From a phage: a DNA stretch of 64,000 nt. Of this stretch, positions 52,608 through 57,359 are shown in pieces. Location of the stretch: the NCBI GenBank assembly GCA_026188615.1, contig GCA_026188615.1_4525.1; one strand, 5' to 3'. The notes below the pieces were generated by a model, which did not search any database, was not told the DNA's origin, and saw only the letters and a program-made list of their open reading frames with translations. Made by a program: the position numbers and the translations under genes. Numbering within the stretch: the first letter of the stretch is position 1; every line of letters begins with the position of its first letter.

Positions 52608-52913
52608 TTATTTTCCTCGACATTCTTTAATGAAATTTTCTAGATTGGTAGATTCAATAGCTTTTTTACGAGCTTCTGCGTGTTCTTCTTCGGTCAATTT
52701 ACGTTTATAATTGACCCAGACATTATGGTCGAAACTAGTCGTGGCATATAATAACAATGCTCCAACGAATAGCAAAAACGGCGATAAGAATATAAAACCA
52801 GGAACACCATCCATATCGTAAGCCTTTTGTAATACTGCAACAGAAAGGGCTGCGTAAAAAAGTGATGCAAATATTGTTAAAAGACCAATTCGGTTGGTTT
52901 CGCCTAATTTCAT
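52608..52913 (-). CDS. membrane protein
   Basis: 101-aa ORF with TM segments; early promoter upstream. Confidence 0.5.
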   Translation of the reverse strand: MKLGETNRIGLLTIFASLFYAALSVAVLQKAYDMDGVPGFIFLSPFLLFVGALLLYATTSFDHNVWVNYKRKLTEEEHAEARKKAIESTNLENFIKECRGK

Positions 52914-52941
52914 AATATTCTCCTCATGTTTAATAGGACTA

Positions 52942-52971
52942 CTATAACATAGTCCTATAATTGTGTAAACA
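52942..52971 (-). promoter_or_regulatory. early-type promoter
   Basis: GTTTAC-N18-TATAGT, dyad ATAGGACT/AGTCCTAT around -10. Confidence 0.55.
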
Positions 52972-52982
52972 GTTTTGTGAAG

Positions 52983-53939
52983 TTATTTGAAAGGTTTTAC
53001 CATATGGAAATTTTGTTTGAAACGTTTGACGTAATCGTCATGTCCTAAGCTTTGGTACATACTTACAACTTTGCTGTAGTTTTCCCAAGCGTATTCACGG
53101 AACCAACCTGATGTGATTGAAGTACAGACCTTTTCAAGAGCCATCATAAAACTATCACGTGGATGGATTTTAAAGTCATTAGGAATTTGAGAACGTTCTA
53201 ACGCTAGTACACATGATTCTTCGTATACACCGGCCAATTTGACCATTTCCGGTAATGATTCGAACTTCTCGCGTGAGGTCATGACTTCAGAACCATCTTT
53301 CATGTAAAATGTATACGCTGGACGGTCTGTTAGTGCAATGGCTTCATGAATAGTATCATGGTCATATGTATAGATGTCATCTTTAAAGAATGCGCTTTTA
53401 GAAGTGTCAAGAACCGGGTGAGCATAATTCAAGGTTTCTTTCTGGCGTTTCAGCATAATTTCAGTAAGTTCATCGTTCAGTGTAACACCTTTACCACGAA
53501 GATACTGAATATGGTTCATAGTCTTTAAAAAGAATGGATTATTTTTCTTGAAACGATGAGACATCTTAATTGCAAGACACATCTCAGGAGTTGCCCAGTA
53601 AAACCCGTTCAAACGATCTTTAGTCAAATTTTTCTTGGCGTATTTTAAAAGGTCATAAGAAGACGTGAAATCTTCAGGAGTGAGTTCACCGACTAATTCA
53701 CGGACATTAGTGATTGCCGGAACAATATATGCTTCAAAATGAGTTTCGCGTCCATTATGGAAGCATTTGAAAACTTGGACATCAGGGTTATCTTGGTGAA
53801 CATATACACCCATCATTTGATTTTTGAATGCATTCCAAGAACCTTGGTCTGCAATAAAGTCCCAGTCACTATTTTTGATAGCGTTAGAATCAATAAGACC
53901 GTGATAGTGAAGTGCACGAGAACCAATAACTAACATCAT
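52983..53939 (-). CDS. hypothetical protein
   Basis: 318-aa ORF. Confidence 0.55.
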   Translation of the reverse strand: MMLVIGSRALHYHGLIDSNAIKNSDWDFIADQGSWNAFKNQMMGVYVHQDNPDVQVFKCFHNGRETHFEAYIVPAITNVRELVGELTPEDFTSSYDLLKYAKKNLTKDRLNGFYWATPEMCLAIKMSHRFKKNNPFFLKTMNHIQYLRGKGVTLNDELTEIMLKRQKETLNYAHPVLDTSKSAFFKDDIYTYDHDTIHEAIALTDRPAYTFYMKDGSEVMTSREKFESLPEMVKLAGVYEESCVLALERSQIPNDFKIHPRDSFMMALEKVCTSITSGWFREYAWENYSKVVSMYQSLGHDDYVKRFKQNFHMVKPFK

Positions 53940-53967
53940 AATATTTTCCTCGGATTAATTCATTAAC

Positions 53968-54219
53968 TTAAATTTCACGACATGCGATATTATATTCATC
54001 CCAGAGGTCATCGTGTGAAGCCTCTACCAATGGAACGATTGTACCGTTTATGTCTTCATTATAAGGGCAAATTGTACAGTGCGCATCTTCGAATCGGATG
54101 CCTTTGTGTTCAGATTTTTTATAACGCATATCGAATATCTTTGCAAACTTTTCACGAGTAATGGTTTTACCAACCACTTTGGTTCCGATACTTTCGTAAT
54201 AAATCATTGTGGACTCCAT
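53968..54219 (-). CDS. hypothetical protein
   Basis: 83-aa ORF; early promoter upstream. Confidence 0.5.
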   Translation of the reverse strand: MESTMIYYESIGTKVVGKTITREKFAKIFDMRYKKSEHKGIRFEDAHCTICPYNEDINGTIVPLVEASHDDLWDEYNIACREI

Positions 54220-54235
54220 TTGTTTTGATAGGACT

Positions 54236-54265
54236 ACTATAACATAGCCCTATCTTGTTGTAAAC
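54236..54265 (-). promoter_or_regulatory. early-type promoter
   Basis: GTTTAC-N18-TATAGT. Confidence 0.55.
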
Positions 54266-54269
54266 TGTT

Positions 54270-54467
54270 TTAGCAAGAATAACTAGATGATACCCAGCCT
54301 TGAACAGTGATACTATTGTGGGATAATGAGATCGCGTCCTGGAGATTCAGACCTGCGTTATCTTCAATCCATAATGTAACTTCTTCGCGTTCTTCTGTTG
54401 CAATTTGGAACAGGTTTTCCAGAGCAGCTACTGCCGTACGTACAGCACAATCTAATTCACGAGACAT
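54270..54467 (-). CDS. small protein, paralog family (C-terminal WVSSSxSC)
   Basis: 65 aa ending QGWVSSSYSC. Confidence 0.5.
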   Translation of the reverse strand: MSRELDCAVRTAVAALENLFQIATEEREEVTLWIEDNAGLNLQDAISLSHNSITVQGWVSSSYSC

Positions 54468-54476
54468 ATTGTTTCC

Positions 54477-54749
54477 TTAGCAAGTGTGAGAAGATGCGAC
54501 CCAACCACCAGTTTCGAGGCTCAGGTTGTAGTCGTATTGGTAAACGTCAGCCCATTCAGCATAGCCGTTTTTTGTACAACGTTCAAGATCGGCTTTAAGA
54601 TGTCCGGGTGAATGATAGGTTCCACCCATACCATAAGCTGGGTACAAGTTGAATGTTGTGTTTTGTTTATCAGCAATTTCTTTGGCAGCCTCAATAGCTG
54701 CATAGATTTTTGCTACAGCTTCAGCCAGTTCGGTTTGTTCTTTAGACAT
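54477..54749 (-). CDS. small protein, paralog family (C-terminal WVxSSxxC)
   Basis: 90 aa ending GGWVASSHTC. Confidence 0.5.
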   Translation of the reverse strand: MSKEQTELAEAVAKIYAAIEAAKEIADKQNTTFNLYPAYGMGGTYHSPGHLKADLERCTKNGYAEWADVYQYDYNLSLETGGWVASSHTC

Positions 54750-54758
54750 AATGATTCC

Positions 54759-55064
54759 TTAGCACAACGCAGAAGACGAAACCCAAGCACCTTCAGTAAT
54801 AACGTATCCATTACCTTCACGCTTAACATCGCCACCATTATTTTCAATTTCATCTTTCATCCACTGGGATACGATTTCACCCTTAGGATAATAAGTACGA
54901 CCGCTACCATAATCACCTACAGAAAATGATACGGCATATTGGTCTGCGATCTTTGTTGCTTCTTCTTCGATGCGTTCAGCTTGATTCAGAAGTTTATAAA
55001 TTGCATCTGAAGCGGATTTGGCATCATTAAACTCTGGTACTTTAATTTCAATAATCTTACTCAT
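54759..55064 (-). CDS. small protein, paralog family (C-terminal WVSSSxxC)
   Basis: 101 aa ending GAWVSSSALC. Confidence 0.5.
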   Translation of the reverse strand: MSKIIEIKVPEFNDAKSASDAIYKLLNQAERIEEEATKIADQYAVSFSVGDYGSGRTYYPKGEIVSQWMKDEIENNGGDVKREGNGYVITEGAWVSSSALC

Positions 55065-55420
55065 TTTCTACATTCCTTAATAAAGTTTTCTATTGTTTCA
55101 TTTTCACGTCTAGTTAGGAGTTCATTATAACTAATCATTTGAGAAGCGTAAACCTTTTTATTTTTCTTGTTATGGTTTATAAAATCGTAGTAAAAATAGA
55201 CTACAGTACAAAATGATGCGATGGATGCAAAGGCTTGGGTATACCGTAAGTCCTGCCATTGGTCTGTGAATCCACCGGTATTCCCTATAAATCCTAACAC
55301 AACTCCGTCAATAAGAAATCCAACTAATCCAAAGGCAAATCCCATGCCAATACTCATAATAAAAATTAGAATGTTCTCACCAAGAGAAGGCCATACGGTT
55401 AAGAGTTGAGGCTTTTGCAT
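55061..55420 (-). CDS. membrane protein
   Basis: 119-aa ORF. Confidence 0.5.
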   Translation of the reverse strand: MQKPQLLTVWPSLGENILIFIMSIGMGFAFGLVGFLIDGVVLGFIGNTGGFTDQWQDLRYTQAFASIASFCTVVYFYYDFINHNKKNKKVYASQMISYNELLTRRENETIENFIKECRK

Positions 55421-55824
55421 CTTATCTCCTTAACGAATTCCATAGCTTCTTCATATTCATACTTTTTAACAGCTTCATCATACTGAGCTTGAGCTTTTGC
55501 GCACTGAACTTTCCATTCTCTTAATCGGGCTCTGTGATGACGGCCTTGGTGCCAATATCCTACCCAATTAATAGGCATTAATAAAAACGGTACAATAAGT
55601 GGTGCGACGAACATTAATGAAAATGCTGCATCAGACGATATAACTTTATTGGAATCTAAAACAGCTCCTATAATCATAAAGATTAAAAATGCTAAAGCTA
55701 AAATAGGGCCAAATAGTACTTCGTTTGGGATTAATTTACGTTTGTATTCGTATGCCCATGGCTTAATTGGCATGTACAGGGTTGGCTTTGACATATTCTC
55801 TACATTCCATAATAAATTGCTCAA
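55399..55824 (-). CDS. membrane protein
   Basis: 141-aa ORF. Confidence 0.5.
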   Translation of the reverse strand: MSNLLWNVENMSKPTLYMPIKPWAYEYKRKLIPNEVLFGPILALAFLIFMIIGAVLDSNKVISSDAAFSLMFVAPLIVPFLLMPINWVGYWHQGRHHRARLREWKVQCAKAQAQYDEAVKKYEYEEAMEFVKEIRCKSLNS

Positions 55825-56359
55825 GGATTAAATTGTTAGTGAAATTAGGACTAACAACCATAGTTTCATAAAGCGCATCAATAGCACTTAAAGCATCAAC
55901 TCTTTTAAGCAAAGGCTTGCCTTCATACATAGTTTCAGAATCGATGATTAAAGTAAAGTAATATTTTTTATTATCGACTAGAACTTCTGTATCGATATAA
56001 AACATATTAGACCTCAGAAGCTTATCTCTAAAACCATAATAATCTTCTGAACGTTCACTGATATATTCCCGTTCAGTGTTTAAACAACAAACAGACCACG
56101 TAGGAGCAACGAAATCAGTGAATCTAATATCATGGTCTGCAACTAGTTTAGCAATAGCTCCGATATCATGAATCATAATACCTGGGGCTAATAAAGATTT
56201 TCGGTGATTTGCATATTCAGTTGTCTCATAAGAAGACGACCAGTACCATTTACGTCCAGTTGCAACATATCGTAATGAATCAACTAAAGACGTAGGTGGA
56301 TTTACCTTATCTCGGAACTCTTCGAACATTGAGTCAATATCATTATTTTGGTTTCGCAT
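55763..56359 (-). CDS. hypothetical protein
   Basis: Internal ATG MRNQNNDIDSMFEEF with AAGGAG RBS. Confidence 0.5.
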   Translation of the reverse strand: MRNQNNDIDSMFEEFRDKVNPPTSLVDSLRYVATGRKWYWSSSYETTEYANHRKSLLAPGIMIHDIGAIAKLVADHDIRFTDFVAPTWSVCCLNTEREYISERSEDYYGFRDKLLRSNMFYIDTEVLVDNKKYYFTLIIDSETMYEGKPLLKRVDALSAIDALYETMVVSPNFTNNLILEQFIMECREYVKANPVHAN

Positions 56360-56378
56360 GTTAACTCCTTTATTATCC

Positions 56379-56400
56379 AAAAGGAGGACCGGAGTCCTCC
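56379..56400 (-). terminator. hairpin with short U tract (weak terminator or attenuator)
   Basis: GGAGGAC-CGGA-GTCCTCC then TTTT on minus strand. Confidence 0.45.
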
Positions 56401-57043: not shown

Positions 57044-57072
57044 ATTATACTCTGCTCTCAAGAGTTTGTAAA
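57044..57072 (-). promoter_or_regulatory. sigma70-type promoter (TTTACA-N17-TATAAT)
   Basis: Upstream of PspA-like gene; near-duplicate of 27689..27717. Confidence 0.55.
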
Positions 57073-57329: not shown

Positions 57330-57359
57330 ACTATAACATAAACTTACTTAGATGTAAAT
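57330..57359 (-). promoter_or_regulatory. early-type promoter
   Basis: ATTTAC-N18-TATAGT. Confidence 0.45.

Follow-up and report, generated by a model that had tools for sequence, protein, structure and literature searches.

Several enzymes with a nucleotidyltransferase (NTase) fold modify hydroxyl groups of small proteins: GlnD acts on PII, MntA on HepT, and CitX and MdcG on a serine of acidic acyl carrier proteins (ACPs). In the case of CitD and MdcC, this serine receives a nucleotide-derived group. The MenT1-MenA1 and DUF1814/AbiEii systems have a small protein encoded immediately upstream of the NTase. MenA1, a protein of 68 amino acids, occupies the active-site face of MenT1 (PMC10435456). 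Here we describe a phage locus with a related layout, located on contig GCA_026188615.1_4525.1 (NCBI GenBank assembly GCA_026188615.1), of which a stretch of 64,000 nucleotides (nt) was analysed, referred to in the following as the window. Three adjacent small open reading frames (ORF1 to ORF3) on its minus strand encode proteins with a common cysteine-terminal end, introduced here as the tail, and the gene of a predicted NTase is found two genes downstream of ORF1. The tail genes and the NTase gene form a conserved cassette with deep reciprocal synteny in very different large lytic phages.

The window belongs to a T4-like Mosigvirus of the RB69 group; its region 53900-55500 is 99.3% identical with Escherichia phage APCEc01 and Shigella phage JK36. 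ORF3 (54759-55064, minus strand, as are all features given below) encodes a protein of 101 amino acids with a net charge of -6, starting with MSK and ending in ...EGAWVSSSALC. ORF2 (54477-54749), the ortholog of RB69ORF137c, encodes 90 amino acids from MSK to ...TGGWVASSHTC, and ORF1 (54270-54467), the ortholog of RB69ORF136c, encodes 65 amino acids from MSR to ...VQGWVSSSYSC. The tails including their stop codons, W-V-S-S-S-A-L-C (54759-54785), W-V-A-S-S-H-T-C (54477-54503) and W-V-S-S-S-Y-S-C (54270-54296), are conserved across the family. All three ORFs, which a preliminary description of this region had reported as small ORFs with a shared cysteine ending, are thus present, use the same reading frame and are separated by gaps of 9 nt. 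The proteins are soluble and acidic, with isoelectric points of 4.2-5.0, and have hydrophilic N-termini (MSKIIEIKVPEF.., MSKEQTELAE.. and MSRELDCAV..). Within the window, the motif terminates 3 of the 257 ATG-initiated ORFs of at least 40 amino acids, namely ORF1-3 only. Since outside the cassette zone of 80 related loci (see below) only 13 of 3664 ORFs end in a relaxed form of it, the probability of encountering three adjacent cases by chance is about 1e-7.

A word-indexed protein search reached just seven relatives, and an exhaustive profile search (E<=1e-3; query: the three paralogs and four homologs) was needed to see the family. It yielded 173 cluster representatives, nearly all of which align through their own last residue. 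The ending W-x-x-[ST]-[STN]-x-x-C was found in 146 of the 153 retrieved proteins, with the cysteine as the final residue in 139. The members have a median length of about 90 amino acids and a median net charge of -8. According to column statistics, they share an N-terminal amphipathic helix ending with A-x-x-[IL]-A-D-E, usually a block F-x5-Y-G-M-G-G-T-Y-Y-P with a hairpin, which is missing from ORF1, and, following an unconserved acidic linker, the tail G-G-W-[VIL]-S/A/P-S-S-x-x-C. With positions counted back from the terminal cysteine, all 146 diverged representatives have W(-8), S(-5) and C(-1), and 96% have S(-4). Hence, the C-terminus is functionally constrained, as had been supposed from the three ORFs, and the motif is retained in homologs. 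The family is restricted to phages. Hidden Markov models of the PHROG collection place ORF3 (E 1.3e-22) and ORF2 (E 5e-19) in phrog_899 and ORF1 (E 7.7e-37) in phrog_4882, both catalogued with 'unknown function', and no known family, degron or defence-related model in the libraries searched, Pfam and NCBIfam among them, matches ORF1-3.

Some variants of the architecture deserve mention. Many metagenomic members (P0064, P0083, P0104, P0153 and others) carry degenerate W-x-S-S repeats in the acidic linker, for example WESSSEGWESSSEGWVSSSSQC; such repeats would fit several docking or acceptor sites. Moreover, the cassettes of eleven loci (L043, L051, L059, L061, L063 and L066-L071, at approximately 3.6-5.7 kb in the locus) encode proteins of about 100-200 amino acids that cluster with the family and have an internal tail-like stretch ..W-x-[PAS]-S-G-G-C-E-W-E-E-S.., followed by about 17 residues ending in ..YGW[DN][LIV].

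The shared ending might result from a signal in DNA or RNA, such as a ribosome binding site, a terminator or a recombination junction, or from chance, and the junctions between the ORFs lend themselves to such a reading. The 9-nt junction of ORF3 and ORF2 (54750-54758) reads, with the stop codon, TAAGGAATCATT-ATG, and that of ORF2 and ORF1 (54468-54476) reads TAAGGAAACAAT-ATG; both conform to TAAGGAA-N4-ATG, where the Shine-Dalgarno (SD) sequence of the next gene includes the stop codon. This arrangement suggests translational coupling within the trio, and in other phages, too, 9 nt is the modal distance from one tailed ORF to the next (54 of 137 gaps). The sole DNA-level repeat in the trio is the 48-nt junction of tail, stop, SD sequence and start, with 75% identity. 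Neighbouring membrane-protein genes offer a parallel: '..F[IV][KM]E[CI]R..' occurs at or near the C-termini encoded by the RB69ORF133c-like gene (52608-52913), e.3 (55061-55420), e.4 (55399-55824) and e.5 (55763-56380). We rejected it as a second protein tag, as its DNA is the SD sequence plus start of the next gene read in frame (ATTAAGGAATGTAGA..ATG) and the ending is therefore a by-product of coupling. In the case of the tail, however, the conserved residues are encoded before the SD sequence, and the last gene of each array retains the tail though no coupled gene follows. In 143 non-identical tails of other phages, the codons at Ser(-5) are TCN in 113 and AGY in 30 cases and those at Ser(-4) TCN in 102 and AGY in 41, with all six serine codons in use. 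The terminal cysteine is encoded by TGC (87) or TGT (56), valine codons vary, and 20 of the 143 tails are followed by TGA or TAG. The use of six serine codons at invariant positions indicates selection on the protein rather than on DNA or RNA. Together with the lack of any Rfam match, codon usage rules out an origin in DNA, ribosome binding or RNA structure, and retention of the motif in 146 diverged proteins likewise leaves this explanation with a vanishingly small probability.

The link between tail genes and NTase was approached from both sides. On the enzyme side, we inspected 80 IMG/VR loci picked solely by an NTase homolog (40-99% identity). A canonical tail ORF is present in 75 of these loci, and about 71 have at least one on the same strand as the NTase and within approximately 2.6 kb upstream of it; none of the 80 loci has a tail ORF downstream of the NTase on the same strand. 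Three seeming exceptions (L031, L053 and L075) have spacing variants of the tail (..SSWVQSSC, ..SNWDSSTC, ..EWQASAQSC and ..WEESSC), and ..WYSSSMQNC was seen in other loci. A relaxed form of the motif terminates 199 of the 844 ORFs in the 3-kb upstream zone versus 13 of 3664 elsewhere, with copy numbers per locus from zero (6 loci) to about five. The tail family is the only gene family that accompanies the NTase across phage types in these loci. On the tail side, a blind search of a viral collection for DNA encoding W-x-S-S-S-x-x-C-TAA, restricted to ORFs of at least 40 amino acids with at least 3 kb of downstream sequence, gave 22 ORFs. An NTase follows downstream of 17 of them; of the other five, four are non-acidic ORFs that probably match by chance. 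Both metagenome contigs with distant members of the tail family carry a protein of about 310 amino acids with DUF7277 and DUF7275 just downstream. Among 185,579 species genomes we found five NTase loci, all on contigs of metagenome-assembled genomes (MAGs) and all with tail ORFs upstream. The linkage thus extends from T4-like enterobacterial phages to jumbo phage contigs of about 350-370 kb and to MAG contigs, where the NTase is about 40% identical. Acinetobacter phage Berthold (NTase 41% identical) has tail ORFs upstream as well, and Stenotrophomonas phage IME-SM1 (37.5%) has one tail ORF downstream.

The predicted NTase of the window (52983-53939; ortholog of RB69ORF134c; phrog_2141, likewise catalogued with 'unknown function') has 318 amino acids and consists of DUF7277 (97 bits, 1e-27) and DUF7275 (265 bits, 4.5e-79; cut-offs 27), both of which are also matched by all eight diverse homologs scanned. 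The signature of Pol-beta-type NTases is present: G6-S7, D25-x-D27 and E69 are kept in 16 diverse homologs, and by these motifs the enzyme is predicted to be catalytically intact. The helical domain has its own set of residues kept in the 16 homologs, namely K125, H128, R129, K131/K132, H174-P175, D193-H194-D195, H198, C243 and C272-T-S. An AlphaFold2 (AF2) model (predicted local distance difference test, pLDDT, 85) has nucleotidyltransferases as best fold matches, with values of 10.2 for MenT1, 8.6 for TglT/MenT3, 8.5 for ANT(2''), 7.8 for MenT4, 7.4 for JHP933 and 7.2 for LnuA. These enzymes transfer a nucleoside monophosphate (NMP) to a hydroxyl group of tRNA or of a small molecule. A basic patch, H128-R129-F-K131-K132, beside the invariant K125 and H128 is present in the tail-associated clade and absent from tail-less homologs. 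Pfam scans at E<=0.01 and E<=5 reported only DUF7275 and DUF7277, thus not DUF1814 (PF08843), and a reading of DUF7275 as an HD domain likewise found no sequence support at E<=5. Homologs of the NTase are encoded in 734 of 50,697 phage records. Two Acinetobacter phages label theirs, plausibly, 'putative nucleotidyltransferase'; the labels 'prohead assembly scaffold protein' in Klebsiella phage VAC36 and 'major capsid protein' in JQD51 appear doubtful.

We propose that the small proteins are clients of the NTase and that their tail enters its active site as a serine acceptor, a reading to which we assign a probability of roughly 40%. The conserved tail would be the element that engages the active site, and O-nucleotidylylation or phosphoryl transfer would take place on the invariant serine pair. 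Docking or metal contacts could be provided by Trp(-8) and by the terminal cysteine, with its free carboxylate and thiol, and the diverged bodies of the proteins might fulfil distinct effector functions in host takeover. This role is favoured because Ser(-5) is absolutely invariant, because several paralog lineages, each with the tail, have been kept as orthologs across genera, and because modification of small proteins by enzymes of the NTase fold is well established (GlnD-PII, MntA-HepT, CitX/MdcG-ACP). In those pairs, too, the NTase-fold enzyme has a small protein as partner, often an acidic one, in which a hydroxyl residue is invariant. The likeness is one of analogy only: there is no sequence similarity, and the candidate acceptor of the phage proteins lies within the last five residues, beside a terminal cysteine. 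No Pfam or NCBIfam match to CitX/MdcG, CitD/MdcC or CitG/MdcB was detected in ORF1-3, the NTase or the eight neighbouring ORFs.

Several observations weigh against such a client role. MenT toxins, the closest structural relatives, act on tRNA. No tail ORF was found near the NTase homologs of Streptomyces phage Muntaha, Gordonia phage Miskis, roseophage DSS3_VP1, Vibrio phage ValKK3 and Pseudoalteromonas phage HM1, which are 26-34% identical and in many cases only about 250 amino acids long, and two of the 80 loci (L025 and L076) have an NTase and no tail ORF within 6 kb. The tail-less distant homologs show that the enzyme does not universally need tail proteins. Three of the five (Muntaha, Miskis and DSS3_VP1) adjoin RNA ligase, polynucleotide kinase (PNK) or tRNA genes. 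Furthermore, in the AF2 monomer of ORF3, a protein predicted to be folded (pLDDT 89.6), W94-V-S forms the last beta-strand and SSAL a short helical turn, with a pLDDT of about 85 in the tail that falls to 59 at the cysteine; a tail that is partly structured is not a free tag. When the tail was removed, 174 of 188 tail-bearing ORFs still fell into one single-linkage cluster, which rules out a portable tag on unrelated domains and leaves one family with a conserved end. Finally, a small upstream protein controls MenT1 by simply blocking its active site (PMC10435456).

The last point leads to the alternative that the acidic proteins are non-covalent partners of an RNA-directed NTase, acting as inhibitors, timers or specificity adaptors, with the tail itself unmodified. 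The enzyme would then act on, or repair, 3' ends of tRNA or other RNA in a MenT-like manner, and the tail would plug or dock in the active site, for example with the cysteine carboxylate and thiol on the catalytic metals and the tryptophan in the base pocket. Taken by itself this explanation is tentative, and a non-covalent inhibitor or adaptor is in our view nearly as likely as the acceptor role. The 68-residue MenA1, encoded upstream, neutralises MenT1 by blocking the active site (PMC10435456), and the phage cassette has this order as well, with the small acidic genes preceding the NTase gene. NTase homologs devoid of tail genes exist, distant ones adjoin RNA ligase, PNK and tRNA arrays, and the cassette of the window lies a few kb from a tRNA cluster. 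In detail, RNA ligase, PNKP, metallophosphoesterase or tRNA-array neighbours were observed in the loci L210 (1-2137 and 10146-10573), L212 (2265-3810) and L211 (5974-7859) and in one metagenome contig; such neighbourhoods hint at an RNA substrate or a link to RNA or tRNA ends. Four short homologs of about 250 amino acids, in Muntaha (L210), Miskis (L211), ValKK3 (L215) and HM1 (L216), lack tail genes and still adjoin a very acidic protein (net charge -12 to -15) with a conserved end of its own, ..EEV-x-P-x4-[IV]-T-[VM]-[YW]... It follows that the superfamily may generally pair with an acidic partner, and these neighbours may constitute a second partner type. On the other hand, one to about five paralogs per NTase, each a separate orthologous lineage, would be unusual for an antitoxin, a serine conserved to 100% at position -5 resembles a chemical role more than docking, and a self-inhibited toxin meets no obvious need of a lytic phage. 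The phage enzyme lies outside DUF1814, and the small proteins share no sequence similarity with MenA1 or other MenA proteins, AbiEi or DUF1814. In the crystal structure, the C-terminal 17 residues of MenA1 are disordered and the contacts described reside in helix alpha1 (PMC10435456), whereas the C-terminus is the most conserved part of the phage family, with its invariant W-x-S-S-S-x-x-C and one to about five paralogs. Moreover, the phage module resides in lytic phages rather than on bacterial chromosomes.

A third explanation detaches the tail from the enzyme: the tail could recognise a target in the host, serve as a degron or as a signal for a protease, or form, within an oligomer, an intermolecular disulfide or metal site, with the synteny due to shared early expression or a shared pathway. 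The packing of the partly structured tail as last strand of the fold would agree with this, and in their acidity the proteins resemble many inhibitors or mimics encoded by phages. No NTase occurs in the 4.5 kb downstream of one acidic member (L153), tail ORFs are missing from a few NTase loci, and trio and NTase are separated by a promoter-like site in the window and by an annotated terminator in a related phage. We regard this explanation as unlikely, since the linkage is reciprocal and persists where no other synteny does, only one cysteine is conserved with no second metal ligand, and no known family, degron or defence-related model matches. Similar considerations apply to the functions that the preliminary description had listed for the C-terminus, namely lipidation, metal binding or recognition. 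Recognition fits best, because of the tight and reciprocal linkage of the tail genes to the NTase gene. Lipidation finds no support, as the soluble, acidic proteins have no signal peptide or lipobox and the cysteine is the last residue (139 of 146), which does not conform to CaaX. Metal binding by a monomer is improbable given that 80 of 146 members have a single cysteine and no second ligand is conserved; an intermolecular or enzyme-shared metal site may be considered.

A further possibility resembles the maturation of ribosomally synthesized and post-translationally modified peptides (RiPPs). The NTase would activate a tail serine as O-NMP or O-phosphate, elimination would yield dehydroalanine, and addition of the terminal cysteine would close a lanthionine-type C-terminal ring. 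S(-5) and S(-4) are located four and three residues before the cysteine, offsets that are typical of lanthionine rings; serine pair and terminal cysteine are invariant, and an enzyme able to activate hydroxyl groups is encoded next door. Nevertheless, the eight neighbouring ORFs encode no homolog of LanB, LanM, LanKC, LanD, YcaO or radical-SAM enzymes, the substrates would be folded proteins of 65-100 amino acids (judged from the ORF3 model) instead of leader-plus-core peptides, and tail variants have zero to three residues between SS and C. We know of no precedent for elimination of an O-nucleotidylylated serine. In terms of precursors of lanthipeptides or aminovinyl-cysteine (AviCys) peptides, with ORF3 folded (pLDDT 89.6) and no such enzyme domains in the neighbours, the S-x-x-C/S-x-x-x-C spacing alone is reminiscent, and ring formation therefore ranks as quite improbable. 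Returning to the client role, it could be part of a dedicated post-translational system of large lytic phages, in which covalent modification of the tail by the NTase (Ser-O-nucleotidylylation, phosphorylation or a Ser-Cys ring) arms diversifying acidic effectors for host takeover or counter-defence; we consider this extension rather doubtful.

Two further groups of known proteins invite comparison. ANT(2'')-Ia and LnuA are stand-alone resistance enzymes of about 160-180 amino acids with small-molecule substrates, whereas the phage NTase has an extra 190-residue helical domain, DUF7275, with invariant His, Asp and Cys residues, and dedicated neighbouring protein genes. LysW/ArgW and SoxY are likewise small proteins (acidic in the case of LysW) that work via a conserved extreme C-terminal arm: LysW ends in ...EDWGE and SoxY in ...GGCGG, the cysteine of which carries the substrate. 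Here, too, the resemblance is an analogy only; folds and motifs differ, their partners are ATP-grasp or Sox enzymes rather than an NTase, and no Pfam match was obtained for ORF1-3.

With regard to the origin of the trio, the pairwise identity of the aligned paralogs is 31-34%, as opposed to 54-64% between ORF1-3 and their Dhakavirus orthologs (JS98, JS10 and IME08). ORF1, without the central Y-G-x-G-G-T-Y-Y-P block, has the N-terminal helix and the tail in common with ORF2 and ORF3. The tandem triplication suggested earlier is thus supported in so far as the ORFs are paralogs, but the event is ancient: the duplications predate these genera, and a recent origin is ruled out by the identities given. 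The higher GC content of the trio that had also been noticed was confirmed but is modest, differing by four points (0.411 versus a window mean of 0.370, standard deviation 0.018 in 800-nt windows; 99th percentile), and no tested feature ties it to recent acquisition. In the RB69 reference (AY303349; L003, 2501-2807), a 1-nt insertion splits the ORF3 ortholog into ORF139c and ORF138c, and the tail reads WVSSPALC with Ser(-4) replaced by Pro; this is due either to a sequencing error or to decay of the laboratory strain's copy.

The trio is positioned between the lysozyme/nudE/e.2 genes and the e.3-e.6 genes, with a tRNA cluster a few kb away. In the sequence ATGA, the start codon of ORF3 and the stop codon of the e.3-like gene overlap. 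In JK36, JK42, F27 and F31, the e.4-like membrane protein goes by the name 'sulfurtransferase', which looks spurious. Between trio and NTase gene lies an ORF of 83 amino acids (53968-54219; ortholog of RB69ORF135c, phrog_3723), whose family was seen in 12 of the 80 NTase loci, a T4-like subset only, and which probably does not belong to the core module. Upstream of ORF3, inside the e.3-like gene, we noted a promoter-like site TTTACG-17-TATAAT (55124-55152); one related phage record has a T4-type middle promoter annotated somewhere inside the orthologous gene. A second site, TTTACA-17-TG-TATAGT (54236-54264), follows the ORF1 stop and precedes the 83-amino acid ORF and the NTase gene; the annotation of phage SA79RD has a terminator at the corresponding position. 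Both sites are consensus matches only. They are part of a regular series of strong promoter-like sites (TTTACA-17-TATAGT/TATAAT) on the coding strand between small genes, which further includes 52941-52969, 57044-57072 and 57330-57358 and suggests that transcription of the entire block may be divided among several short units.

In the searchable literature, we found nothing on the tail motif, on DUF7275/DUF7277 or on the linkage to an NTase; the genes were previously catalogued merely as hypothetical proteins, PHROGs or DUFs. The logic of an NTase with a small protein resembles that of known pairs, and what is new is the tail with its invariant cysteine end, along with the arrays of several paralogs and the restriction to phages. 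T4-like and jumbo phages encode hundreds of small early genes that lack an assigned function. Three such genes, along with several hundred relatives, become a defined two-part module, in which an 8-residue C-terminus with a free cysteine is tied to one enzyme, and Pfam DUF7275 and DUF7277 would gain functional context. If the tail is a modification site, the module would represent a new phage-encoded protein-modification chemistry and a pair of tag and enzyme that is portable by genetic means. Should the small proteins instead inhibit or adapt a MenT-like enzyme, lytic phages would use tRNA-directed NTases, which until now have been known as toxins of bacteria and as effectors of abortive infection, under control of a tail-docking protein family. 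In both cases, the outcome has a bearing on the manipulation of translation by phages or on their evasion of defence.

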